Source: an uncultured Bacteroidota bacterium (GTDB taxonomy: Bacteria; Bacteroidota; Ignavibacteria; UBA10030; UBA8401). Taken from it: a stretch of 64,000 nucleotides of DNA. How positions within the stretch are numbered: the first letter of the stretch is position 1; every line of letters begins with the position of its first letter. The position numbers and the translations under genes are program-made. Below, piece by piece: positions 24,140 through 36,434 of the stretch. The notes beneath the pieces were generated by a model. It was not told the DNA's origin. It saw nothing but the letters and a program-made list of their open reading frames with translations, and did no database searches. The stretch is from the NCBI GenBank assembly GCA_963827085.1, contig CAWGZY010000001.1, positions 117,837 to 181,836 on the forward strand, in the 5' to 3' direction.

Positions 24140-24832
24140 CTAACCCTCATCAGTTCTTAATCTGTATCCGATGCCCGATTCCGTGAGAAGCATCTTCGGC
24201 TTCGACGGATCGTCTTCAATTTTTTTTCGCAGCTGGGCAACATAGATCCGCGTGTACTGTGTTTCCTCTGCGTTGGTGGGTCCCCATACCTGTTCAAGGA
24301 TAAAACGGTGGGTCAGCACTCTTCCCGCATTTCTCACGAAAAGTGCGAGCAATGCATATTCTGTCGCTGTCAGCTTCACCACTTCATTTCCCTTTTTTAC
24401 CAGCCGGGCCGACAGGTCGACTGTCAGACCTTGCATCGTGAAAACTTCTTTGTCGGGAAGCGATGTGCGGTGGCGGAGCGCTGTCCGTACGCGGGCGAGC
24501 AATTCGCCTGTGCGGAATGGTTTCACCAGATAATCATCCGCCCCGGCGCCGAGGCAATCGACGATATCCGCTTCGGCATTGCGGACGGAAAGAATAATAA
24601 CGGGAATCGTTGCCCATTCGCGAATTGCCTTCAGGACGCTTAGCCCATCGGTGTCGGGTAATCCCAAATCAAGAATGATGAGTTCCGGACGTTCGGTCGC
24701 CGCCATTCTCATCCCCTCATTTCCTGTTAACGCGAATTTAAGAGAATAGTCTTGCGGGCCGAGGGTCAATTCGAGAAGGCGGCGAATTTGTATTTCATCG
24801 TCAATAATCAGGATGACGGGCTTTGTGCTCAT
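24140..24832 (-). CDS. kdpE: KdpE response regulator (OmpR family)
   Basis: Receiver LDLGLPD, GADDYLVKPF; winged helix with YVAQLRKKIEDDPSKP..LLTESGIGYR; overlaps kdpD. Confidence 0.93.
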   Translation of the reverse strand: MSTKPVILIIDDEIQIRRLLELTLGPQDYSLKFALTGNEGMRMAATERPELIILDLGLPDTDGLSVLKAIREWATIPVIILSVRNAEADIVDCLGAGADDYLVKPFRTGELLARVRTALRHRTSLPDKEVFTMQGLTVDLSARLVKKGNEVVKLTATEYALLALFVRNAGRVLTHRFILEQVWGPTNAEETQYTRIYVAQLRKKIEDDPSKPKMLLTESGIGYRLRTDEG

Positions 24833-27501
24833 TGCTGTTTCGAAAGTACGGCGTTCATTGGGATCCGTAACGTGAATTCTGCTCCGGCCGGAGCGAGATT
24901 CTTTGCAGCCAGTGTCCCTTTATGCGCTTCGGCGAAACCTTTTGCGATCGTGAGACCGAGGCCTGAGCCGCCGCTTTTCATCCCTTCGGCACGATAAAAT
25001 TTTTCGAACACTTTAGGGAGGTCATCCTTTGTGAGTCCGGGTCCATTGTCTGCAACGACGATGACACATTCTTTCCCTTCAATTTTTGCTTCAACGGCAA
25101 TAGAACTCCCATCCTGTGTATGAACCGCCGCATTGTGAATAAGGTTCGTAAGGGCTTGTTCGACCAGCCCGAAATCCAATTTGACAAGCGGCATCTCATC
25201 CTGCACTTTGACGACAACGGAATGACGTACAAGCTCACGGTCTAATCCCTTGATCGCGGCATTGATAAGGTCGTGAACGTCGCACCAGTCCATCTTCGGT
25301 TGGATCATTCCCGACTCGAGCCGCGACATGTCGAGGAGGTTTGCAATGAGCCGGTTGAGTCGTTCGGCCGCGATGTGAATTTCTTTTGTATACTCATCCG
25401 ACGACGGAGCTGCCTGGCCGGCTGATGTCTTCATGAGGTTTTCTGAAGCGCCCATGATTGCCGCGATGGGCGTCCGAAGTTCATGCGAGATCGAATTGAA
25501 CAAGATTTTGTACAGCCGCTCCGATTCTGCGACGACGATCGATTTTTTGTTGACATCGTTCAACAGTTCCCGTTCCATGGCCGACGCGATTTGCGCAATG
25601 AAGTTGTCGAGCGACGTCTCCTCGTCGGAGGAGAGTTTTTCGTTTCGATGCAGCCGAACGCCGATTACGCCGAGAGGGTAGCGGGGACCGGAGACCGGAA
25701 AATATGTCGTCTCAGCCGATGGAAGTGTGTCGGTATATTTGCCTGCCTTTTTTTCATTCCAATATGTCCATGAAGCAACGCCGTATTCTTTTGCGTCAAG
25801 GTTAAAAGAGCTTGCTTTGTGCGGATGGGCCGATATTTCACCGTCCGCTTCACCGAGAATGATCGCAACGTCTGCATCGAAATATTTTTTGATGTTCGAA
25901 ACCGCCGCCCGGATCACCTCTTCCTGCGAATGCGCTGAGGAGAGGTCGTTTGTTAGGGCGAAGAGGGCAGACGTCCGCTCCTCGCGCTGTCGAACAGCTT
26001 TTTCTCTTGCCCGTACGCGCGCGGTGAGAACCCCCGTCACCAATGCCACGATAAAATAAACGCCGAGCATCATGACATCTTCAACGCGTCCTATGGAAAA
26101 GGTAAAGATCGGCGGGATGAAAAAAAAGTCCCACACTAACGCTCCCATGGCGGCTGCTATAAGCACGGGACCCGGGCCCATCCGTAAAGGAAGAAGGGAA
26201 ACGGTGAGCAGGATGATCATCGAAACAGTTCTATATCCGATGAGTTGTGCAAAAGGAAAACAACAAAGGGCGACAATGGCGACGATGGCTGATGCAAGGA
26301 TATATTGCGTTATGGTAGACTGAAGCTTGGGAATGGCGCGCCGTTTTCTTTCTTGCTGCGTAGTATCTTCCTGTCCGACGATATAGACGTCGACGTTGTG
26401 GCTTTTTTCGACAAGGTCCCCTATCAACCGCTGCGAACGCGAGAACAAGCCTCGCTTTGATTTTCCGACAAGAATTTGCGTCGCGTTCTGTTCGCGTGCG
26501 ACGCGAATGAGCGCGTCCGCAACATTTTCGTCCGAGGTCGTAATGATCTCCGCTCCTAATTTGCGAGCAAGGGAAATATTTTTCGACAACTGCTCTTTAT
26601 CGCTCTCCTCTAACGGTGCGGAAGTCTCGACGCATACTACCGCCCATGAAGCATTCATCGTGTATGAGAGCCTTCGTGCCCAGCGGAGAACGGAGACGGA
26701 GTGCGGGCTTGGACTGATGCCCACAATCAGACGTTGTCCGGATTTCCACGGACCGGCAATCCGTGCGGTACGCATATAATCGCGCAACTGATGGTCGACG
26801 CGCTCGGCTGTCAACCTGAGGGACATTTCGCGCAACGCCGTAAGGTTTCCCTTGCGGAAAAAATTCTGTATGGCTTGCTGCGAGCGTTCGGGAGCGTAGA
26901 CCTTCCCCTCTTCCAATCTCTTCAGAAGCTCGTCCGGGGGCAAGTCGATGACTTCGATATCATCCGCCCGTTCAAAGATAGAATCGGGAACAGTCTCCCG
27001 TATCACCGAGCCGGTGATTTGTGCAACAGCATCGGCGCGGCTTTCGAGATGCTGAACATTCAAAGTCGTATACACATCAATGCCGTTGTCAAGAAGCTCC
27101 TGGACATCCTGGTACCGTTTGAGATGGCGGCTTCCCGGAGCGTTGGTATGGGCGAGTTCGTCTACAAGAACGAGCTTTGGCTTCCGTGCGAGGATCGCGT
27201 CGAGGTCCATTTCCTCTACAACGCTGTCGCGATAGTCGATCTTTTTGCGCGGGATGAAAGGGAGGTTTGCAACGAGCGCTTCTGTTTCGGGACGCTTGTG
27301 CGTTTCGACGATGCCAATGACCACATCAATCCCTTTTGAGATGGCCTCGTGCGCTGCCGTGAGCATGTCGTATGTCTTGCCCACGCCCGCGCACATGCCG
27401 AAAAAGATTTTCAGCTTCGCCTTTGCGGCATTTTCCTCTTCTTTTCGTAAAGCGTGGAGAAGAGCGTCTGGGTCGGGTCGGGATTCATCGATGGAAATCA
27501 T
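24829..27501 (-). CDS. kdpD: KdpD sensor histidine kinase
   Basis: GMCAGVGKTYDML, VDELAHTN, KRYQDV, TTLNVQHLES, Usp domain, 4 TM, GAF, SHELRTP. Confidence 0.97.
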   Translation of the reverse strand: MISIDESRPDPDALLHALRKEEENAAKAKLKIFFGMCAGVGKTYDMLTAAHEAISKGIDVVIGIVETHKRPETEALVANLPFIPRKKIDYRDSVVEEMDLDAILARKPKLVLVDELAHTNAPGSRHLKRYQDVQELLDNGIDVYTTLNVQHLESRADAVAQITGSVIRETVPDSIFERADDIEVIDLPPDELLKRLEEGKVYAPERSQQAIQNFFRKGNLTALREMSLRLTAERVDHQLRDYMRTARIAGPWKSGQRLIVGISPSPHSVSVLRWARRLSYTMNASWAVVCVETSAPLEESDKEQLSKNISLARKLGAEIITTSDENVADALIRVAREQNATQILVGKSKRGLFSRSQRLIGDLVEKSHNVDVYIVGQEDTTQQERKRRAIPKLQSTITQYILASAIVAIVALCCFPFAQLIGYRTVSMIILLTVSLLPLRMGPGPVLIAAAMGALVWDFFFIPPIFTFSIGRVEDVMMLGVYFIVALVTGVLTARVRAREKAVRQREERTSALFALTNDLSSAHSQEEVIRAAVSNIKKYFDADVAIILGEADGEISAHPHKASSFNLDAKEYGVASWTYWNEKKAGKYTDTLPSAETTYFPVSGPRYPLGVIGVRLHRNEKLSSDEETSLDNFIAQIASAMERELLNDVNKKSIVVAESERLYKILFNSISHELRTPIAAIMGASENLMKTSAGQAAPSSDEYTKEIHIAAERLNRLIANLLDMSRLESGMIQPKMDWCDVHDLINAAIKGLDRELVRHSVVVKVQDEMPLVKLDFGLVEQALTNLIHNAAVHTQDGSSIAVEAKIEGKECVIVVADNGPGLTKDDLPKVFEKFYRAEGMKSGGSGLGLTIAKGFAEAHKGTLAAKNLAPAGAEFTLRIPMNAVLSKQQ

Positions 27502-27652
27502 ACGGTAATATATTGATTCTTTTGCCCATTTTCATCCACTCGTGTTTATTGGTAGTGGGGTCTTTTGCTTTTCAAACCGGAAGGAGGCTTAAATGAGCTT
27601 CTTTCGGCGTGACAAAATTTCAGGGAGAAGAATTTGGCATGGAAAAATTATT

Positions 27653-28108
27653 TCATTGCATCTCTGCAAGCTCGGTGTCAAATCGGTTTTTGCATTCTGG
27701 ACAAAGTGCGTAAGAACCCTTTCCAATATCCCAGTAGAATTGGAGAATCGACTTCTTTCTATCCTGATAGCACTTTGCGCAAATCCAGTGCATTGGCTCG
27801 GCGGTCTTATTCGATTCATTGGGCGCGTAAACATAAGCCCCCAATTTAAGTTTTTTAAGGCTATACAACGCGGCTGTATCATCCCAGCGTTCAAAGCTCA
27901 GAATTTTCTTTTCAAGTTCGTCTTTTTGCTTCAAGAGAGAAAAATGATCTTCTTGGAGCGTAAGTGCATTGCTTTGTATGGTGAAAATCCGTTCGCGCAA
28001 ATCAGAAGTAGCCTCAAAGATTTGTTTCTCATCGTGAATAGATTGTAAGCCTTTAGCGATGTTCGATAATGCGCCAATTGAACTAATAAACGCTGAAAAG
28101 TCTGCCAT
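27653..28108 (-). CDS. cargo protein: N-terminal helix/coiled coil plus a zinc-ribbon-like C-terminus
   Basis: RBS aagggaga before ATG; HWICAKC...LCPEC (two CxxC). Confidence 0.75.
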   Translation of the reverse strand: MADFSAFISSIGALSNIAKGLQSIHDEKQIFEATSDLRERIFTIQSNALTLQEDHFSLLKQKDELEKKILSFERWDDTAALYSLKKLKLGAYVYAPNESNKTAEPMHWICAKCYQDRKKSILQFYWDIGKGSYALCPECKNRFDTELAEMQ

Positions 28109-28158
28109 GATTTCTCCCTTGCTGGTTGGTGGTTGACAATATCTTTAGAATTAACCGA

Positions 28159-28223
28159 AAATTCAAATTTGAAAAAGGCTTAAAAATGACGTAAATTCAT
28201 TCAGAAAAACATCGTGTGCCGTC
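28159..28223 (+). promoter_or_regulatory. 65-bp repeat, copy 1: palindrome plus sigma70-like promoter
   Basis: 63/65 identical to 29395-29459; TTCAAATTTGAA palindrome 28162-28173; -35 TTGAAA 28169, 17-bp spacer, -10 TAAATT 28192. Confidence 0.8.
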
Positions 28224-28295
28224 CTGGATGCACGATAAGAGAATTTAAAAATCCCCCCGTTCCGCGCATTGACGCGGAGGGTGAACGCAAGTTCA
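28204..28295 (+). ncRNA. candidate structured RNA, copy 1, truncated by an IS end
   Basis: Leader hairpin ATCGTG..CACGAT; TCCGCG-CATTGA-CGCGGA; TGAAC-GCAA-GTTCA; interrupted at 28296 by GGTAGTG. Confidence 0.6.
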
Positions 28296-28332
28296 GGTAG
28301 TGCTCAATTTTGAAAGGAAGGCTTAAAATGAG
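28296..28332 (+). repeat. internal (nested) IS1-type left-end-like sequence
   Basis: GGTAGTGCTCAATTTTGAAAGGAAGGCTTAAAATGAG parallels the outer end GGTAGTGGGGTCTTTT...GGAAGGAGGCTTAAATGAG. Confidence 0.7.
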
Positions 28333-28678
28333 ACAGAATCAAGATGACAGAATTTCAGTAGATAAAACTTGGCACAATAAAGAACAAGGCTTGCTCGTCT
28401 TTGGACATTTCCTACATTCAAACGGTGGGATGGACTTGATTGACATAGACAGCGACGGAACGGATTTGATTATTCGGGTAAGAGAATACAGTATGGAGTC
28501 GATAAAATCTGGAGAAATAACAGATGATTCCAAGTCACTGGACTACGTAGAAATGAGAATAGCAATCAGTAGAATTAGGCGTAGATGGTTTAGGTCTTTA
28601 ATTGTACGTCTAAAACTCGGAGCGCGGAAGTCCAAACGGTATATAGATCATTATAGTGTCCGACTCGTACGTCCTTGA
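28328..28678 (+). CDS. hypothetical cargo protein
   Basis: ORF starts at the ATG after AAGGAAGG in the nested end; no recognisable motif; 3' end overlaps the convergent ORF. Confidence 0.4.
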   Translation: MRQNQDDRISVDKTWHNKEQGLLVFGHFLHSNGGMDLIDIDSDGTDLIIRVREYSMESIKSGEITDDSKSLDYVEMRIAISRIRRRWFRSLIVRLKLGARKSKRYIDHYSVRLVRP

Positions 28679-28832
28679 TTGTTTTGTCGTCTGGAATTAT
28701 CTCCACAAAGTATTCTTCCGGCACACGATGAGTTACTGTTACGCGGAAAGTTTTATCCTTGTATTTACAAGGTATAGTTTTTGATGTGTTATTGAGAGGA
28801 AGGAAGTCGTCTAAAGAAAGTGGAAAGTCCAT
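28590..28832 (-). CDS. hypothetical cargo protein (80 aa)
   Basis: RBS aggag upstream; directly downstream of the lipoprotein gene on the same strand. Confidence 0.6.
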   Translation of the reverse strand: MDFPLSLDDFLPLNNTSKTIPCKYKDKTFRVTVTHRVPEEYFVEIIPDDKTIKDVRVGHYNDLYTVWTSALRVLDVQLKT

Positions 28833-28872
28833 AGCAGCTCCTATAATTATGAGGACGCTTTATCATTTTTTA

Positions 28873-29319
28873 CTATCGGCATTGACCGTACAGCGGGATT
28901 GTTATTGGGCTGCTTGCCGTTGTAGCGTTGTGTTTGATAGTAAGATACCCGTAATGGTTTCCCGTAGCTAAGGGTTTGTATTGCATCAAAATATCAATCT
29001 CCGTGCCCGGCAATAACAGAAAATTTGGGCCGCCCGACATAAGAGAAAAATAGGTTCCTGTAACCGCTACGCTCCCCGAAAGGCTGGCGTTTGATGTTGA
29101 GGGGTTTAAAATGATTACGTTTGCGGTTGTGGCCGTTGAAACCGGGTTCAGCCCAAAGTAGAGATAGCCTTGATATGCTAAATCTGCGGTGATGGTAATG
29201 TTAATAACTGTCCCTGGTGGAGTGGTTACTGTTGACGTTTGGGGGTTGCTTGAATCCTTCTTACAGCTAAAGAAGAGAACTGAGCAAAGCAGAAGTGGTA
29301 AGTATAGAATGGTTTTCAT
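28873..29319 (-). CDS. cargo lipoprotein with a beta-sandwich (ASH/choice-of-anchor-D-like) domain
   Basis: RBS aaaggaga; signal peptide with lipobox FFSC-KKD; C-terminal GYLTIKHNA...ITIPLYG pattern. Confidence 0.75.
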   Translation of the reverse strand: MKTILYLPLLLCSVLFFSCKKDSSNPQTSTVTTPPGTVINITITADLAYQGYLYFGLNPVSTATTANVIILNPSTSNASLSGSVAVTGTYFSLMSGGPNFLLLPGTEIDILMQYKPLATGNHYGYLTIKHNATTASSPITIPLYGQCR

Positions 29320-29394
29320 GTGTTCTCCTTTGCGGATGGTGAAGGGCGTTAAGGTATTCTAAATTGCAACGGCAATATGCTTACAATTAAGTGT

Positions 29395-29459
29395 AAATTC
29401 AAATTTGAAAAAGGCTAAAAAATGACGTAAATTCATTCAGAAAAACATCGTGCGCCGTC
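29395..29459 (+). promoter_or_regulatory. 65-bp repeat, copy 2: palindrome plus sigma70-like promoter
   Basis: TTCAAATTTGAA 29398-29409; -35 TTGAAA 29405, -10 TAAATT 29428. Confidence 0.8.
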
Positions 29460-29560
29460 GCGGGTGTGCGACCAAAGAAATTTCAAAAAATCCTTCTCGT
29501 TCCCTGCTCGACAGGGAGGGCAATCGAAAGTTTGCTCCGCGACACGGGAGGGATTTTTTT
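29440..29560 (+). ncRNA. candidate structured RNA, copy 2 (leader hairpin, three-way junction, U-tail)
   Basis: 16-bp closing stem 29485-29500/29544-29559; TCCCTG-CTCGA-CAGGGA; GCAATC-GAAA-GTTTGC; junction TCCGCGAC complementary to GTCGCGGG 29457-29464; compensatory changes versus copy 1. Confidence 0.72.
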
Positions 29561-29569
29561 ATTGTGAAT

Positions 29570-30106
29570 ATGCCGCGAAAGAAAATTCCGGGAGAATTTC
29601 TGAGGATTAACGAAGAAGAAGATGGGCAATTCAGAATTGAGTACTCCTTTGAAGGAAATCCTTATTGGGTAAAGATGAGTGTTGGCTCAACGTCTATGTC
29701 CGCGGACGGTTTAGTTGGGGAACACAACGTAAACGCGCTAATCGAATTATTGGCTTCGCTACCGGAAGATAACGCCGATGCAATGAAGTTAAAAATACAG
29801 CTTCAGGAAAATAGAATTTTAGCAGTTTGGCCACAAATGTACATTGCTTACCGCAAGGGAGAGAACTTGGGGCAATTTTTTCAAGGCGATGTTAATCAAG
29901 AGAAGGAAATAAACCCTGTGGTTCCTATCAAGGAATGGTTACAAAGCAAAGCTAAGTTCGCCGAGTTCGTGAGGGATGAGTATGAGAAAAATCAGAATAA
30001 GTATAAGAGTTTAAAGGACGCAACGGAAAAGATATATGCTCAATATGTCTTTCCAAACGAAGAGTGGACATTTAAACAATGCTATGATTTTGTGAGGAAA
30101 AAGTAA
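29570..30106 (+). CDS. hypothetical cargo protein, possibly DNA-binding at the C-terminus
   Basis: ATG 29570 lies just after the RNA U-tail; 178 aa; helical basic C-terminus followed by TGTGA repeats. Confidence 0.65.
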   Translation: MPRKKIPGEFLRINEEEDGQFRIEYSFEGNPYWVKMSVGSTSMSADGLVGEHNVNALIELLASLPEDNADAMKLKIQLQENRILAVWPQMYIAYRKGENLGQFFQGDVNQEKEINPVVPIKEWLQSKAKFAEFVRDEYEKNQNKYKSLKDATEKIYAQYVFPNEEWTFKQCYDFVRKK

Positions 30107-30158
30107 AAATGTGAAAGAATGTGAAGGTTTGTGATTGATTATGTGAAGATTTTCGTGA
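30091..30158 (+). repeat. phased TGTGA repeats (operator/iteron-like)
   Basis: TGTGA at 30091, 30110, 30120, 30130, 30142 and CGTGA at 30154. Confidence 0.65.
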
Positions 30159-30202
30159 TAATTTGCCCTTTCCCGCCTGCTATATTATCCCTGTTCGTTT
30201 AA

Positions 30203-30344
30203 ATAAAAATCCCCCTTCCAATGAGCTTTGGAGAGGGGGCTAATTCACTAAAACCGTCCAACAATACGAAGGGAATAGGTGTATGAGTAACGTGCTTAAA
30301 ATAATACTGTCTGCCCGTTAGGGGAGGCGGGTTATTCCTTCGAC
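30203..30344 (-). ncRNA. candidate ~140-nt small RNA with its own promoter and terminator
   Basis: Minus-strand TTGATT(30379-30374)-N17-TATCTT(30356-30351); internal stem CGAAGGAATA/TATTCCCTTCG; ends in hairpin CCCCCTCTCCAA..TTGGAAGGGGG plus ATTTTTATTT; no ATG ORF. Confidence 0.55.
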
Positions 30345-30397
30345 AACTGAAAGATAAAAAGTTCTTTCGAGAGAATCAAGAAAAATTAAAATACTAC

Positions 30398-30426
30398 TTG
30401 ACAATAGATATAGTATGTATTATATT
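30398..30426 (+). promoter_or_regulatory. near-consensus promoter for a leaderless HTH gene
   Basis: TTGACA-N17-TATATT, 5 nt before ATG 30432; ATACTA..TAGTAT inverted repeat straddles the -35. Confidence 0.8.
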
Positions 30427-30431
30427 AAACC

Positions 30432-30629
30432 ATGACAAAGATGAAAGAGTTAAAAACGGTTGACGGCTCGGAATACTTTACGATCAAGGAAGCGGCGAAG
30501 ATATTGGGAATAGAAGCCAATTCCATCCGTAACTATCTATCATGGGGAAAGATCACAGCATACAAATTCAAGAGTTTAACGCTGATTAGCAGAGAAGAAA
30601 TCGAACGCTGGAAGGAGTTACAGAAGTAA
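30432..30629 (+). CDS. excisionase/MerR-like helix-turn-helix protein (HTH_17 type)
   Basis: YFTIKEAAKILGIEANSIRNYLSWGKITAYK...LISREEIERW. Confidence 0.88.
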   Translation: MTKMKELKTVDGSEYFTIKEAAKILGIEANSIRNYLSWGKITAYKFKSLTLISREEIERWKELQK

Positions 30630-30632
30630 ATT

Positions 30633-30708
30633 AAATAGCGAAGCCGCAAGTGTTTGTAGCACCTACGGCTTCTAAATCACTTGTCCGAGTGAACGGACAA
30701 ATAACCTC
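30633..30708 (-). ncRNA. candidate ~75-nt antisense RNA upstream of the transposase
   Basis: Minus-strand TTGATT(30743-30738)-N17-TACCTT(30720-30715); hairpin TTGTCCG..CGGACAA; 13-bp hairpin GAAGCCGTAGGTG/CACTTGCGGCTTC that pairs fully (with G-U) only on the minus strand. Confidence 0.55.
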
Positions 30709-30767
30709 GTTTAAAAGGTACGTTCATGATCGGACAAAATCAAGTCCAAAATAAAGGAGATTTTGCC

Positions 30768-31601
30768 GTGAACGCACTAACAACAGAAAAGAAAGCCCTT
30801 GTTCTTACGCACCTTGTAGAAGGGCTAAGTATCCGGTCCATCGAAAGAATCACTGGCATCACCAAGCGGGCTATTCTCCGCGTCCTCGTTGAGTATGGAG
30901 AGAGAGCTAAAGAGATTCAGGAACGAGAGATGGTAAACCTTCAATCTAACTTTGTCCAGGTAGATGAGATTTGGACGTACGTAGGCAAGAAGCAAAAGCA
31001 ATTAACACCGTTAGACAGTGAAGAGTTAGGCGATCAATACGTATTTGTCGCTATGGACTCCGAGACAAAGCTCGTGCCTTCGTTCTTAGTAGGCAAACGG
31101 AATATGGAAAACTCGCTCGAAATTATGAAGGATTTACAATACAGAATCACTAATCGTTTTCAGCTTACAACGGATGCCTTTATTCCTTATTTTAATGCGG
31201 TCGATTCAGTGTTTGGAGAGGATGTTGATTACGGACAGATTCACAAAGAGTATCGAGAAGAAACAAAAGGCGAGAAACGATATTCCCCCGCAGAGTTTGT
31301 GAGGGTAATAATAAAGCCCTTAATCGGAAGTCCAAAACGGTGGCGAATCTCAACGAGCCATATCGAAAGACAGAATCTTACAATCAGAATGCAAATGAGA
31401 AGATTTACACGGCTTACAAACGCTTTCAGTAAGAAGTTAGAAAACCTAAAAGCGGCAACAGCATTGCATTTCTTCCATTACAACTTTATGAGAATCCATT
31501 CGAGCCTCAGAGTAACGCCCGCAATGGAAGCGAAGATCACGAAAAAAGTATGGGAATGGAATGACTTAATGTCATACGGTCAAATAAAACAAGCGGCATA
31601 A
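30768..31601 (+). CDS. IS1-family DDE transposase (single ORF with N-terminal HTH)
   Basis: LVEGLSIRSIERITG HTH; VQVDEIWTYV, TTDAF, STSHIERQNLTIRMQMRRFTRLTNAFSKK; GTG start after aaaggaga (ORF opens at 30726). Confidence 0.93.
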   Translation: MNALTTEKKALVLTHLVEGLSIRSIERITGITKRAILRVLVEYGERAKEIQEREMVNLQSNFVQVDEIWTYVGKKQKQLTPLDSEELGDQYVFVAMDSETKLVPSFLVGKRNMENSLEIMKDLQYRITNRFQLTTDAFIPYFNAVDSVFGEDVDYGQIHKEYREETKGEKRYSPAEFVRVIIKPLIGSPKRWRISTSHIERQNLTIRMQMRRFTRLTNAFSKKLENLKAATALHFFHYNFMRIHSSLRVTPAMEAKITKKVWEWNDLMSYGQIKQAA

Positions 31602-31766
31602 AAAATGAAAAGACCCCACTACCTGTTTATTGGTAGCGGTATAGTTTGGAAGGCTTTCGGATACTTTCTTGGTTAACCCTATAAAACAAAACACGTATCG
31701 CGAATTCTCTAATAACTTCTCCGTTTGAATCAATTCGAAATTGAAATCAAGAGCCGAAGAGCAATT

Positions 31767-33869
31767 TCACGTAAGCCTCAACGCTACAAGAATCATGTCG
31801 ACGAGTTTAATACCGAAGAAGGGAGCGATGACGCCGCCCACGCCGTAAATGAATAAGTGCCTCCGCAGCAGCTGAACTGCGCTCACGGCGCGATATTTCA
31901 CACCTTTTAACGCAAGCGGTATAAGAACAACAATGATCAGGGCGTTGAAGATGACCGCAGAAAGTATGGCGCTTTCAGGAGTGGCGAGGTGCATGATGTT
32001 TAGTGCGTTCAACGCGGGGTACGTTGTCGCGAATGCCGCAGGGATGATGGCGAAGTACTTTGCCACGTCGTTAGCGATGCTGAACGTTGTAAGGGTGCCG
32101 CGTGTCATGAGAAGCTGTTTGCCGATTTCCACAATTTCCAAAAGTTTGGTTGGATTGCTGTCGAGGTCGATCATGTTCGCCGCTTCGCGCGCGGATTGAG
32201 TGCCGGTATTCATCGCGACGGCCACATCGGCTTGAGCGAGCGCCGGCGCGTCGTTCGTTCCGTCTCCCGTCATCGCAACAAGGCGTCCCCCTTTTTGATA
32301 GTCGCGGATCAATTTCAATTTATCTTCCGGCTTTGCTTCTGCAAGGAAATCATCGACACCGGCTTCAGCGGCGATGGCCGTAGCAGTCAATTGATTGTCC
32401 CCGGTGATCATTACGGTTTTAATTCCCATCTTCCGCAGATGTGCAAAACGTTCTTTGATCCCTCCTTTGACGATATCTTTGAGATGGATGACGCCAAGAA
32501 CTTCTTTGTTCTCTACAACGACGAGAGGTGTCGCGCCCGCGCGGCTGATATCCTGAACTAATTGTTGAACCGCTGCGGGGAACTGGCCTCCTAATTGTTC
32601 GATGTATGCTTTGATCGCTTCAGAAGCGCCTTTGCGGATTATTCTCTCGCCGTTTTTTCCCTCAGGCTGAATGTCTGCTCCGCTCATCCGCGTTTGTGCA
32701 CTGAAGGGGACAAAATGCGCGGCGATCTCGTTGACATTTCGTTCACGAAACCCATGCTTTTCTTTTGCAAGCACAACGATCGAACGTCCTTCCGGTGTTT
32801 CGTCAGCAAGCGATGCGAGCTGAGCAGCATCGGCGAGCCGCTCCTTTGTGATTCCTGGGGCGGGCGTGAACTCGGTTGCCATGCGGTTCCCCAGCGTCAC
32901 GGTGCCGGTTTTATCCAGAAGGAGAACATCGACATCTCCCGCGGCTTCAATTGCGCGCCCGGAAGTTGCAATCACATTGTGACGGATCATCCGGTCCATA
33001 CCCGCAATGCCGATGGCGGAAAGGAGTCCGCCGATCGTTGTTGGAATCAGGCAGACGAGAAGTGCGACCAGTACGGTGACGGTGACAGGCATACCCTGAC
33101 CCGCCGCCTGGACACTGAAAAGAGAATAGGGGAGAAGCGTCACGCAGACCATGAGGAAAATAATCGTGAATGCTGCGAGGAGAATGTTCAACGCAATTTC
33201 ATTCGGAGTCTTTTGCCTTTTTGCCCCTTCGATCAAACGAATCATGCGGTCGAGAAATCCGCCGCCGATTTCGGTTGTAGCGCGAATGATCAGCCAATCG
33301 GATAACACGCGCGTGCCGCCGGTGACGGCGCTTCTGTCGCCGCCGGATTCGCGAATCACCGGCGCACTTTCACCGGTAATTGCACTTTCGTCCACAGACG
33401 CAATGCCTTCAATGACCTCGCCGTCGACCGCAATCGTTTCGCCCGTTTCAACGAGGAACGCATCCCCCTTTTGAAGGAGGGTCGACGTCACCACCTCGAA
33501 AGCAGATCCGTGCTTAGGGCTCTTCAATCGCTTCGCTTTAGTTTCCTGTCGTGCCCGGCGCAATGCATCGGCCTGAGCTTTGCCGCGTCCCTCTGCGAGT
33601 GCTTCCGAGAAGTTTGCAAAGAGAACAGTGAACCAGAGCCAGAGAGAGACGCTTCCGATGTACCATCCGGCTGCTTCGCCGTGGCCGGATAATGCTTGAA
33701 TCCATAACGCTGAAGTAAGAACGCTTCCTACTTCAACGACAAACATTACCGGGTTGCGGACCATCAAACGCGGATTCAGTTTCGTAATAGAGTCGACAAT
33801 GGCGCGGCGATACATTTCGCTGGTGAGGCCCAACGGCTTCTTTAGTTGTTGTGAATTCTGTGTCGTCAT
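31767..33869 (-). CDS. kdpB: K+-transporting ATPase subunit B
   Basis: [45 protein letters not shown]. Confidence 0.98.
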
Positions 33870-33899
33870 TCTGTTATTTCCTTCAGCGCAATAAGCGAG

Positions 33900-35642
33900 T
33901 TAGTGGATCATCATGAAATGTTCAACGATGGGGCCGAGCGCAAGAGCCGGCAAGAAATTAAGTGCGCCGACAATAAGCACCACTGCAACCAGCCAGAAAA
34001 TGAACAGCGGAGTATGAGTCGGCAGCGTTCCTTCACTTACGGGAACGAACTTTTTACGGACGAGAGAACCGCCGAGAGCGAGGGTCGGAACAGCTAACCA
34101 AAAGCGCCCGATGATCATCGCGATTCCGCCGGTTATATTGTAGAACGGTGTGTTGACGCTTATTCCTGCGAAAGCACTCCCATTATTGTTTGCCTGCGAT
34201 GTAAAGACATACAACACTTCGCTGAAGCCGTGCGGTCCGGGGTTGAATATCCCGCTCGTACCCGCAGTGGTCACAACGGCGATGGCGGTGAGGACAAGCA
34301 CGGTAATCGGCATAATGAGAATCAAAAGAGAAGCCATTTTCATCTCGTATGTTTCTATCTTATGACCTAAATATTCCGGCGTGCGCCCGACAAGAAGTCC
34401 GGCAACGAATACCGCAACAATCACAAAGACGAGCATGCCGTAAAGTCCGGAGCCGACGCCGCCGAAAACTACCTCGCCGAAATGGAGCATCACGAGTGTG
34501 ACAAATCCGCCCAACGGGGTAAACGAATCGTGCATCGAATTTACCGAGCCGTTCGACGCAGAGGTAGTTGCAGTGGCCCATAGAACCGAGTTTGCGATAC
34601 CGAAACGGACTTCTTTTCCTTCCATATTTCCCCCGGGCTGGATGCTGTTTGATGTTTGATCGATGCCCATTGCAGTGAACGCCGGGTTTCCCTTTTCTTC
34701 TGCCCATCCGGCCAGAATGAGGAATCCGACGAAGATGATCATCATCGCAGTAAGTATCGACCATCCCTGGCGTGTATCCTTGACCATGAGGCCGTAGGTG
34801 TAACAGAGCGCTGCGGCGATAAGCAAAATGGAGAGCATCTCCAGGAAATCAGTCAGTGGAGTAGGATTTTCATACGGATGCGCAGAGTTGACATTGAAGA
34901 ATCCGCCGCCGTTCGTGCCGAGCTGCTTGATGGCAATTTGAGAAGCGGCCGGACCCATCGCCACAACTTGTTCCGTAACTTTTGCGCCGCTGGTGTCAGT
35001 CGTGGGCTGCAGGAGAGGCACGGAGACATACTGCGAAAAATTCTGAACGGTACCCTGGGAGACAAGCACCAGAGCAAAGATTATAGAAAGCGGAAGGAGG
35101 ATGTACAACGTACTTCGCGTCATGTCTACCCAGAAATTTCCCAATGTTCTGGCTGAGTGGCGGGCGAGTCCACGAATAAAAAGTGCGAGAATTGCCATCC
35201 CCGTCGCTGCCGAAACGAAATTTTGCACTGTCAAGGCGAGCATTTGAGTTAGATAGCTCATCGTTGTTTCTCCGCCGTACCCTTGCCAGTTTGTGTTCGT
35301 TGCAAAACTGACCGCTGTATTGAATGAGGAGTCCGGAGAAACTGCGGTCATGCTTTGGGGATTCAGCGGGAAGAACTGCTGCAGACGCTGCAGGGCGTAG
35401 ACGACGAGAAGCCCTGCAAAGTTGAAGACAAGCATTGCAATGGCGTTCTCTTTCCAATCAAACTCTTCGTCCGGATTAATCCCTGCAAGGCGATATATAA
35501 AGCGTTCAAGGGGGCCGAAGACCGGGTCGAGAAACGTCCGTTCCCGTTGGTACACGCGTGCCATAAAAATGCCGAGCGGTTTGACTGCAAGCACCAGGAC
35601 AACAAGGTAAAAGGCGATTTGAAGAATTCCATTGAGTGTCAT
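33900..35642 (-). CDS. kdpA: K+-transporting ATPase subunit A
   Basis: FATNTNWQ, KQLGTNGGG, SASNGSVN, NNNGSAFAG; real start ATG 35642 overlaps the kdpF stop (ATGA). Confidence 0.97.
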   Translation of the reverse strand: MTLNGILQIAFYLVVLVLAVKPLGIFMARVYQRERTFLDPVFGPLERFIYRLAGINPDEEFDWKENAIAMLVFNFAGLLVVYALQRLQQFFPLNPQSMTAVSPDSSFNTAVSFATNTNWQGYGGETTMSYLTQMLALTVQNFVSAATGMAILALFIRGLARHSARTLGNFWVDMTRSTLYILLPLSIIFALVLVSQGTVQNFSQYVSVPLLQPTTDTSGAKVTEQVVAMGPAASQIAIKQLGTNGGGFFNVNSAHPYENPTPLTDFLEMLSILLIAAALCYTYGLMVKDTRQGWSILTAMMIIFVGFLILAGWAEEKGNPAFTAMGIDQTSNSIQPGGNMEGKEVRFGIANSVLWATATTSASNGSVNSMHDSFTPLGGFVTLVMLHFGEVVFGGVGSGLYGMLVFVIVAVFVAGLLVGRTPEYLGHKIETYEMKMASLLILIMPITVLVLTAIAVVTTAGTSGIFNPGPHGFSEVLYVFTSQANNNGSAFAGISVNTPFYNITGGIAMIIGRFWLAVPTLALGGSLVRKKFVPVSEGTLPTHTPLFIFWLVAVVLIVGALNFLPALALGPIVEHFMMIH

Positions 35643-35731
35643 TCGAACGTCTCCGGCTTTAATAGAACAATGAAGAGGTAGATCAAAAGACCGGCCGCGA
35701 TTAATCCAGAGATGATATAAAGCCAGTTCAT
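35639..35731 (-). CDS. kdpF: K+-transporting ATPase subunit F (30 aa)
   Basis: MNWLYIISGLIAAGLLIYLFIVLLKPETFE matches the KdpF YL...LL.PE.F pattern; RBS aggaga; below the ORF-track cutoff. Confidence 0.92.
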   Translation of the reverse strand: MNWLYIISGLIAAGLLIYLFIVLLKPETFE

Positions 35732-35838
35732 AGATTTTCTCCTGATTTAAAGTCTCCGAGAGATTCACAAAGTCTCATCAATCCCAACGTCAACAAAAAA
35801 GAGACAGCAATAATACCGATATACATGAGATCGTCCAT
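35728..35838 (-). CDS. 36-aa hydrophobic Kdp-associated peptide upstream of kdpF
   Basis: MDDLMYIGIIAVSFLLTLGLMRLCESLGDFKSGENL; RBS aaggaga in the kdpC end; stop overlaps the kdpF start (ATGA). Confidence 0.78.
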   Translation of the reverse strand: MDDLMYIGIIAVSFLLTLGLMRLCESLGDFKSGENL

Positions 35839-35840
35839 TT

Positions 35841-36434
35841 CTATTTCTCCTTTGATACAGTTTGAGTTTCATCCAGCGCGAGATTCAATTCAAGGACGTT
35901 GATGCGGGATTCCCCGAGAAAGCCTAACTGCCTTCCTTCGGTGAATTGATTCATTAATGACCGGATCTGAGATGCGCTCATCCCCCGAACACGGGCTACG
36001 CGCGGAAGTTGATACAACGCCGCAGCAACGCTGATATGCGGGTCAAGGCCGCTCGCAGATGATGTGACAAGATCGACGGGAATCAACAGAGTGTTTGTTG
36101 AGTCGGCGGCTTTGAGGTCTTGCACTCTTTTCTTTACGCCGTCGATGAGTGCCGGATTAAGCGGACCGTAATTCGACCCCGACGAAGATCCTGCATTGTA
36201 GGCGTACGGACTTGTCGCCGACAAGCGGCTCCAAAAGTATTTTGGGTCGCTGAAGGGCTGGCCGATCAGCTCGGAACCAACAATTTTTCCACCCCTTTTG
36301 ATAAAGCTCCCATTTGCCTTCTCCGGAAAAACAATCTGTGCAATTCCTGTGACAACCAGGGGATAGATCACTCCGGTAAGGAGAGTAAACAGAATGAGAA
36401 CAACAAGCGTAGGGCGAATTTGCTTACGAAGCAT
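35841..36434 (-). CDS. kdpC: K+-transporting ATPase subunit C
   Basis: YPLVVTG, ANGS, GSELIGQ, SSGSNYGP, SASGLDPHIS, NVLELNLALD. Confidence 0.97.
   Translation of the reverse strand: MLRKQIRPTLVVLILFTLLTGVIYPLVVTGIAQIVFPEKANGSFIKRGGKIVGSELIGQPFSDPKYFWSRLSATSPYAYNAGSSSGSNYGPLNPALIDGVKKRVQDLKAADSTNTLLIPVDLVTSSASGLDPHISVAAALYQLPRVARVRGMSASQIRSLMNQFTEGRQLGFLGESRINVLELNLALDETQTVSKEK

Follow-up and report, generated by a model that had tools for sequence, protein, structure and literature searches.

The stretch analysed here (the window) is 64,000 nucleotides (nt) long and comes from contig CAWGZY010000001.1 of the uncultured Bacteroidota genome GCA_963827085.1, assigned to the class Ignavibacteria. 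It contains a kdp locus that is interrupted by a 4,073-bp element (27551-31623) between kdpB and kdpD. The flanking genes are all on the minus strand, with kdpD and kdpE on one side of the element and kdpB, kdpA and kdpC on the other. Within its inverted repeats the element carries a DDE transposase, a small helix-turn-helix (HTH) gene, an orphan open reading frame (ORF) that we call ORF_X, genes for a zinc-ribbon protein and a lipoprotein, and one complete and one truncated copy of a structured RNA (Table 1). The explanation that best fits the whole, to which we give a probability of roughly 0.8, is a transporter insertion sequence (IS) of the IS1 family that bears a structured RNA module and has a mosaic left half.

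Table 1. Features of the element and its kdp flanks. Positions are those of the window; loci and genomes outside the window are designated here and in the text by our own L, G and C handles.
Feature	Position	Strand	Basis or remark
kdpD (flank)	24829-27501	-	
Putative kdpD promoter, ATGAAA-N17-TATATT	27507-27535	-	9/12 match; 5 nt before ATG
Left target-site duplication copy, 8 bp, TGTTTATT	27543-27550		direct reading; empty-site contig with single copy
Outer left inverted repeat (IRL)	27551-27572	+	begins GGTAGTGGGGTCTTTT; 16/16 and 20/22 match to right end
Remnant of post-IRL sequence, homologous to 28328-28390; probably no gene here	27593-27652	+	left-end alignment; overlaps antisense strand of zinc-ribbon gene
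Cargo zinc-ribbon protein, 151 aa, coiled coil and C-terminal CxxC...CxxC	27653-28108	-	phrog_1244, E 3.3e-32
RNA module copy 1: promoter TTGAAA-N17-TAAATT (28169-28197) and 5' two thirds of RNA	28169-28295	+	covariance model, 60.7 bits
Inner solo IRL of sibling element, GGTAGTGCTCAATTTTGAAAGG	28296-28317	+	21/22 identical to IRL of L100
116-aa ORF beside inner IRL	28328-28678	+	only first ~25 codons conserved; coding doubtful
Orphan ORF, 80 aa	28590-28832	-	ORF list
Cargo lipoprotein, 148 aa, signal ...LFFSCKKD, Ig-like ASH / choice-of-anchor-D type domain	28873-29319	-	
Promoter of RNA copy 2, TTGAAA-N17-TAAATT	29405-29433	+	conserved in alignment of relatives
RNA copy 2 (complete)	29440-29563	+	covariance model, 131.8 bits
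RNA helix P1	29448-29471	+	
RNA helix P2	29485-29500 with 29544-29558	+	
RNA helix P3	29501-29517	+	
RNA helix P4	29518-29537	+	
RNA pseudoknot	29457-29462 with 29538-29543	+	6 bp
RNA U-tract	29554-29560	+	
ORF_X, orphan two-domain protein, 178-180 aa	29564-30106	+	GTG 29564 or ATG 29570; variable slot behind RNA
G+C-rich hairpin after ORF_X	30211-30239		read from sequence
Putative HTH_17-transposase promoter, TTGACA-N17-TATATT	30398-30426	+	11/12 match; 5 nt before ATG
HTH_17 / excisionase-family DNA-binding protein, 65 aa	30432-30629	+	PF12728, 1e-11; TIGR01764, 2.3e-9
13-bp hairpin between HTH_17 and transposase	30640-30672		
Single-ORF IS1-family DDE transposase	30726-31601	+	Pfam, NCBIfam, plasmid relatives, alignment
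Right inverted repeat (IRR)	31602-31623	-	repeat finder and direct reading
Right duplication copy, TGTTTATT	31624-31631		direct reading; empty-site contig
End-like flank, GGTAGCGGTATAGTTTGGAAGG	31632-31653	+	18/22 to IRL of L106
kdpB (flank)	31767-33869	-	
kdpA	33900-35768	-	
kdpC	35841-36434	-	

Element ends, empty site and transposase

Both termini begin GGTAGTG. The terminal 16-mer GGTAGTGGGGTCTTTT at 27551-27566 recurs as its reverse complement at 31608-31623, with 16 of 16 positions matching, and according to a repeat finder the arms reach 22 nt (27551-27572 and 31602-31623) at 91% complementarity. With TGTTTATT present on both sides, the perfect 16-bp terminal repeats and 8-bp duplication described by an earlier note, which had been made from the letters of the window, are borne out, as is its intact single-ORF transposase at one end. 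The G+C fraction falls sharply at both ends, from 0.51-0.56 outside to 0.36-0.43 inside, and averages 0.410 across the element compared with 0.457-0.486 for the contigs and 48% for the genome.

Contigs of four public soil-metagenome runs were aligned to 26800-32300. A 597-nt contig (X3; depth 14.1, 0-1 mismatches) from the same metagenome study follows 27273-27542 and then continues at 31624-31950, leaving out exactly 4,081 bp, equal to the element together with a single duplication copy; the contig's shorter side is 255 nt long. The empty site that the earlier note had proposed to look for therefore exists. Contigs of a somewhat diverged strain (X1 and X5) are likewise free of the element, with the flanks joined and five differing letters at the joint. 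Pieces of the element itself occur in all four runs at a contig depth below that of the flanks, contig depth being a rough measure. The precise empty site in X3 shows the insertion to be recent and polymorphic; together with the perfect ends and the intact ORF, it upholds the earlier description of the element as recently inserted and probably active. We conclude that a single unit of 4,073 bp jumped into the spacer between kdpB and kdpD and duplicated 8 bp. In addition, the segment 27573-27639 is the sole stretch of the element common to certain X1, X3 and X5 contigs that diverge on either side of it; these contigs therefore represent a related left-end sequence in another context in the same soils.

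Within the 4.28-Mb genome the exact terminal 16-mer occurs only at these two sites, and its 19 further matches each have three mismatches. The full-length siblings for which the earlier note suggested a search are absent: the genome gives one transposase match, the window copy being its sole IS1-like transposase, and blastn with the element recovers only itself. The same genome holds 13 elements of the size of miniature inverted-repeat transposable elements (124-247 bp) whose GGTAGTG... inverted repeats belong to other subtypes, for example at C2:493286-493409, C3:417953-418076, C3:874503-874633, C3:953648-953778 and C7:64394-64525; 12 of them have 8-9 bp duplications, nine perfect and three with one mismatch. 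Immediately beyond the right duplication copy, the end-like flank may be either the relic of an older element or a preferred target, and insertion beside or into kin may be a habit of these elements.

The transposase probably starts at GTG 30768, 8 nt after AAGGAG, where its relatives begin, giving a predicted protein of 277 aa. It matches PF03400 (DDE_Tnp_IS1) above the cutoff (32.4 bits versus 24.1; E 1.4e-7), and its best family match in NCBIfam is NF033558, the IS1 equivalog (E 1.6e-18). Its plasmid-borne relatives, at 41-44% identity, include seven annotated as 'IS1 family transposase' and one as 'IS1 transposase' among the best 15 of 24 records. Thirteen transposases of 42-83% identity have, without exception, D80, D150 and E214 (in the numbering used for the 291-aa ORF), and these residues are candidates for the predicted catalytic DDE triad. 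Elements of the IS1 family typically have GGnnnTG-type ends and 8-9 bp duplications, a pattern that fits both the window element and its bounded relatives, so the assignment to IS1 made earlier stands on the ends as well as on the protein.

A scan of one genome per species gave 133 stretches encoding related transposases from 168 pattern matches, mainly in metagenome-assembled genomes of Ignavibacteria/Bacteroidota and Acidobacteriota. A strict script, which most matches escaped, bounded 12 distinct relatives of 2,479-4,233 bp with GGTAGTG ends and 8-9 bp duplications. Since these 12 (2.5-4.2 kb) hold variable cargo, the elements are, as judged from their gene content, a family of transporter ISs; the window element, with genes other than the transposase between its inverted repeats, had already been called one. 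Some unbounded relatives have further genes downstream of the transposase, one of which we take, from its first residues, to encode a DNA methylase.

HTH_17 immediately precedes the transposase in 22 loci (a count that includes several repeats of one contig) and is, on this recurrence, a conserved transposase partner that belongs to the core rather than to the cargo. Its promoter block is present in all 18 aligned loci, where CTTGACA, a 17-nt spacer and TATATT precede the ATG by 5-7 nt and the spacer is palindromic in most. The HTH-transposase unit thus has a predicted leaderless promoter that is probably self-repressed: the small HTH protein and, after it, the DDE transposase would be expressed from the palindromic-spacer promoter, which the HTH protein would repress, and both proteins would act at the GGTAGTG ends. 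In related elements, ARAGORN reports tRNA-like genes of 86-88 nt with the anticodon GAT or the four-base 'gata', between ORF_X and HTH_17 at L142:6051-6136 (minus strand) and L149:7496-7583 (plus strand) and upstream of HTH_17 in L019; it reports none in the window.

The structured RNA module and the mosaic left half

The candidate RNAs of the earlier note proved real and take the form of a module in which a promoter precedes a ~120-nt RNA with four helices, a 6-bp pseudoknot and a predicted terminator. A 115-nt direct repeat (28137-28251 and 29373-29487) is part of a longer conserved block, and the complete copy of the RNA has a minimum free energy of -48 kcal/mol (z -3.86). The consensus consists of a hairpin, P1, an A/U-rich linker and a 15-bp helix, P2, that closes hairpins P3 and P4; the loop of P1 is complementary to the strand between P4 and P2, as was spotted by eye.

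Compensatory changes support this fold. They occur at 21 of the 42 pairs in an alignment of 14 sequences, where all six pseudoknot pairs show them and 100% of the pseudoknot cells are paired, and at 27 of the 42 pairs in 38 distinct sequences, where 96.7% of cells are paired and the six pseudoknot pairs again covary (98.2% paired). The covariance model, built from the 14 sequences, left the pseudoknot out, so the support for the pseudoknot is independent of the model. None of 500 shuffles matched the real values on four of the five measures with 14 sequences, or on any of the five with 38, and slid controls were 39-55% paired versus 96.7%. G-U pairs form on the plus strand only (pair 134/175, for example, is G-U in 36 of 38 sequences), and plus is therefore the transcribed strand. 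In all 36 full-length distinct sequences a P2 stem of 15-16 bp is followed by 5-7 U, which looks like an intrinsic terminator; a simple terminator scanner does not list P2 because its 'loop' is a branched junction.

Rfam 15 gave no match at E up to 1 between 27000 and 32200, and in 11 relatives it found only tRNAs and two chance matches, all elsewhere in the loci; the motif has no counterpart in Rfam or in the literature searched. A DNA similarity search of 276 genomes of the order placed the RNA at 13 sites in 10 other genomes. A pattern scan of 185,579 species genomes gave 12 stretches; it gave 33 in metagenomes and none in viral contigs. The covariance model recovers 45 full-length copies in the collected loci, and in a class-wide sample of 151 genomes G000 is the sole genome with a match to it. 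A full-length IS1-like transposase lies downstream of the RNA, in the same direction and within ~1-1.7 kb, in 7 of the 13 genome loci, with a partial one in two more; among the metagenome loci, whose flanks reach at most 1.5 kb, 11 of 25 have HTH_17 and/or transposase matches downstream. In compact relatives the module lies 23-53 nt inside the left end (L194 and L169).

Several loci show the RNA in other settings. Transposases of the IS1595 family (zinc ribbon plus DDE_Tnp_IS1595), at L148:9511-10452 and L153:5196-6119, are convergent with the RNA-ORF_X cassette, and a DUF3800 gene lies nearby in L148. An RNA-ORF_X-HTH_17 cassette in L144 (G085:C33; 4906-8648) has genes for a tyrosine integrase, SpoVG, a rolling-circle-type Rep and a HigB toxin nearby, with the module placed between the integrase gene and the HTH_17, SpoVG and Rep genes. 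L157 and L199 share a 2,201-bp stretch (L157 1638-3838) with matching GGTAGTGACTCATTTTGAA ends and the RNA and ORF_X inside; it has no IS1-like transposase match and no duplication, and may be a non-autonomous derivative. Within the window, a ~23-nt block of the type TTCAAAnnnGAAnnAGGCTTAAA occurs at 27571-27593, 28162-28184, 28305-28327 and 29398-29420, following both left ends and overlapping the -35 of both RNA promoters, and may be a repeated, putative protein-binding site.

An ORF of at least 180 aa begins 3-19 nt past the U-tract in 11 of 14 loci, and the other three have short ORFs only. The ORFs in this slot form a mosaic network: those of the window and L153 have a C-terminal ~55 aa in common, an N-terminal part is common to L153, L152, L146 and L144, L146 and L142 share another C terminus, and the ORFs of L147, L148, L150 and L151 match none of the others by BLAST. 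ORF_X of the window has 87 distant relatives in a library of 1.8 billion proteins, falling into two modules. Pfam assigns no family to 41 of 42 ORF_X relatives and gives one marginal Rubrerythrin match, a word-based search returns one relative, and the Atlas holds only unnamed clusters, at 0.92. An AlphaFold2 model of ORF_X (mean predicted local distance difference test score 91.1 for the whole and 89 for the C-terminal domain) shows a three-strand sheet plus helices, for which the best Foldseek match has E 0.05. A likeness of the N-terminal domain to SSV1 A100 (Z 7.8) and the best match of the C-terminal domain alone (Z 4.7) both fall within the range that is common without true matches, and no fold was assigned.

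The left half of the element is composite. The inner IRL at 28296 resembles that of L100, a bounded 2,479-bp relative, and the ~60 nt that follow it are also alike; it has no partner right end and no duplication, and the right terminus of the element as a whole is the counterpart of the outer left end. RNA copy 1, ~80% identical to copy 2, is cut inside helix P4 by this inner IRL. A metagenome contig has the same layout, with two RNA copies 1,006 nt apart and a left end before the second. We infer that a sibling element first landed in helix P4 of the RNA of an outer element. Recombination of the two homologous right halves would then have removed the intervening DNA including the inner right end, and the composite would have transposed as one unit into the kdp spacer. 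What had earlier been read as an elaborate regulatory region is in part the product of a nested sibling element, as the inner left end shows.

Alternative explanations

Several observations weigh against our explanation of the whole. The NF033558 score of the transposase, 67.4, is below the equivalog cutoff of 100 and points to a distant IS1 branch. The transposase gene also lacks the InsA/InsB' frameshift layout, being one uninterrupted ORF that belongs with the single-ORF members, and the protein lacks the N-terminal zinc finger of its Acidobacterial relatives. The RNA is not general to the transposase family, since it was found in the window and in only one of 91 loci collected as relatives of the transposase or of the kdp flanks. 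It also occurs beside IS1595-family transposases (L148 and L153) and in a tyrosine-integrase element (L144), and is therefore a portable module of mobile elements rather than a dedicated part of IS1. Near-identical RNAs (L147 and L152) stand ahead of unrelated ORFs. Nor does the transposase have to be under the control of the RNA, given that a separate promoter serves the HTH-transposase unit. As for the nesting, its history was reconstructed, and no intermediate was found. Finally, no contig piece among those listed bridges either outer junction between element and flank, so that the evidence for these junctions is the assembly, the duplication and the empty site. This last point, together with the metagenomic origin of the genome assembly and the inner left end at 28296, could be taken to mean that the 4 kb are no single mobile unit and arose by chimeric assembly or as two unrelated neighbouring insertions. 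We regard this as extremely improbable: the perfect repeats and the 8-bp duplication bound exactly the block that is missing from the empty-site contig (4,081 bp), an X1 contig that covers 27610-28656 with 0 mismatches crosses the inner left end, and that inner end has neither a duplication nor a second right end.

For the RNA itself, we see about an even chance that it acts in cis as a terminating leader. A sigma-70-type promoter would drive the ~120-nt RNA, most of which would end at P2 and the U-tract; the P1 loop forms the 6-bp pseudoknot with the junction strand of the three-helix junction; and P2 would pair with, and so hide, a GAAGGA located 7-20 nt ahead of the ORF_X start. Expression of ORF_X, and of any read-through into the transposition genes, would then have to wait until the fold had been opened. 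A less probable, though still serious, alternative is a stable small RNA that acts in trans, with the terminator stem merely setting its 3' end; it would work with a protein of the element or host, for example in transposition, as cofactor or regulator, or against phages or rival elements. This would account for the RNA having its own conserved promoter and a conserved U-tract, for its appearance ahead of unrelated ORFs, for its place near the left end of compact relatives, and for a P2 helix that is nearly invariant beyond what pairing needs, with 8 of its 15 pairs never varying in the 14 sequences. The text of Weinberg et al. 2017 (PMC5737381) available to us likewise describes complex motifs with 3' terminators and nearby proteins whose function is unknown. 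However, 11 of 14 loci have an ORF 3-19 nt past the U-tract, which is how a 5' leader is arranged, and in six bounded elements compared by eye the loops have no complementarity to the element ends or target duplications, to which the pseudoknot sequence also shows no relation.

The succession of promoter, pseudoknotted RNA, terminator and ORF is also that of ToxIN, and toxin-antitoxin genes are part of the cargo in relatives (PemK/MazF in L016 and HigB in L144), so the cargo could include the RNA and ORF_X as a toxin-antitoxin (type III-like) or abortive-infection pair. We consider this improbable: the RNA has no tandem repeats (Tandem Repeats Finder gives no row at a score of at least 30), ORF_X falls into several unrelated sequence groups behind near-identical RNAs, PADLOC finds nothing for it, and its model of a sheet and helices has no barrel-like nuclease fold. 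More improbable again is that the fold is conserved for a function at the level of single-stranded or cruciform DNA rather than RNA, as a site of recombination or replication. The module in L144 does lie beside a rolling-circle-type Rep and an integrase, and excerpts of Weinberg et al. 2017 (PMC5737381) hold that comparative methods alone cannot separate single-stranded DNA from RNA; yet a conserved sigma-70-type promoter precedes the fold and a U-tract follows it, always on the same strand as the next ORF, and DDE cut-and-paste or copy-in transposition requires no folded single strand. Going beyond the terminating leader, it is conceivable, if doubtful, that the RNA is a new element-borne class, a sensor or protein-bound cofactor that would time the expression of element genes rather than a passive terminator, and that would serve as a portable left-end module of IS1-like, IS1595-like and integrase-based elements in Ignavibacteria-type soil and sediment bacteria.

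Known systems, cargo and the kdp genes

With classical IS1 the element shares a DDE transposase that matches IS1 models, GG...TG ends and duplications of the IS1 size (8-9 bp). It differs in being five times longer, in having one ORF rather than the insA/insB' frameshift, in lacking the zinc finger, in having a separate upstream HTH_17 with a leaderless promoter, and in a score under the equivalog cutoff. ISfinder has a long IS1 subgroup (ISMhu11, up to ~4.6 kb), a name that had no match in the literature searched. Transporter ISs are described, in the text of PMC9330008 and PMC7986276 available to us, as IS derivatives with passenger genes in IS1595, IS1 and other families. Like them, the window element holds unrelated genes within one pair of inverted repeats, which move with the repeats; it differs in that part of its 'cargo' is a fixed architecture (RNA module, ORF slot and HTH_17) and in combining two siblings in one mosaic. 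A cargo-bearing transposon of the IS1 family beside kdp is ordinary by itself. The insertion is also a presence/absence polymorphism in a natural soil population, and makes the element a clean, datable example of a probably active transporter IS in an uncultured lineage.

The structured RNA module is the added value, a testable object whether it is a terminator, switch or cofactor. Structured RNAs have recently become central to other insertion-sequence families; to our knowledge none has been described for DDE elements of the IS1/IS1595 group, although no literature search was made on this point. RNA-OUT of IS10 and its fold-back inhibition, the bridge RNA of IS110 and the omega RNA of IS200/IS605 are likewise noncoding RNAs near a left end, upstream of mobility genes. 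They differ in enzyme class, and the window RNA neither overlaps the transposase start in antisense nor has variable loops matching ends or targets, and it is not known to bind the transposase. Excerpts of Weinberg et al. 2017 (PMC5737381) list the DUF3800-I, drum, skipping-rope and FuFi-1 motifs as complex RNAs with 3' terminators. As described there, they resemble the window RNA in being conserved multi-helix RNAs with pseudoknot-grade covariation, a terminator, mobile or variable contexts and unknown function, whereas the window RNA usually stands in 5' leader position and has no match in Rfam 15.

The ~3.1 kb of passenger DNA claimed by the earlier note shrinks accordingly: the zinc-ribbon and lipoprotein genes qualify, but HTH_17 with its promoter and the RNA-plus-ORF slot recur as architecture. 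Its description of the cargo as phage-like draws on the phrog_1244 match of the zinc-ribbon protein and the excisionase-type HTH, but has no other support. The function of phrog_1244 is unknown; the zinc-ribbon protein has no Pfam match and has a homologue of 40% identity in L076. The lipoprotein has weak matches, all below curated cutoffs, to Cep192_D4 (1.4e-7), ASH and the NCBIfam family choice_anch_D (2.2e-6). The 80-aa orphan ORF has no match in any library searched (Pfam, NCBIfam, PHROG and PADLOC), the 116-aa ORF has no family match in Pfam, NCBIfam or PHROG, and PADLOC matches none of the cargo. Relatives carry MazF-like, VapB-like and ImmA/IrrE-HTH genes. A conserved basic protein of ~81 aa, with the motif NPAAVALGKLGG.KGG..RA..LS...R..IA..AA..RW and no Pfam match, is encoded at the left end (first ~330 nt) of L147, L152, L048, L067 and L068; the window does not have it.

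The insertion point lies 42-49 nt upstream of the kdpD ATG and 135 nt past the kdpB stop codon. The putative kdpD promoter is intact, 8 nt from the insertion point, and a block beside the kdpD start codon is conserved in relatives of the same genus. We would expect the insertion to block read-through from kdpCAB into kdpDE, which would have to cross 4 kb of foreign DNA with several hairpins; the kdpD core promoter would stay intact, and the minus-strand zinc-ribbon gene would read towards kdpD. A comparison of the single TGTTTATT in other species was not possible base by base because the spacer is too diverged. In four genomes of the genus (G006, G008, G010 and G001) the gap between kdpD and kdpB is ~90-360 bp. 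L097 (G007:C9) and L098 (G009:C14) have other insertions, of ~1.5 kb and 11 kb, in the same spacer, neither containing a homologue of the window element's genes. The kdp genes of the window run in the order kdpC, kdpA, kdpB (31767-36434, minus strand), then kdpD and kdpE, an order that differs from the textbook kdpFABC.

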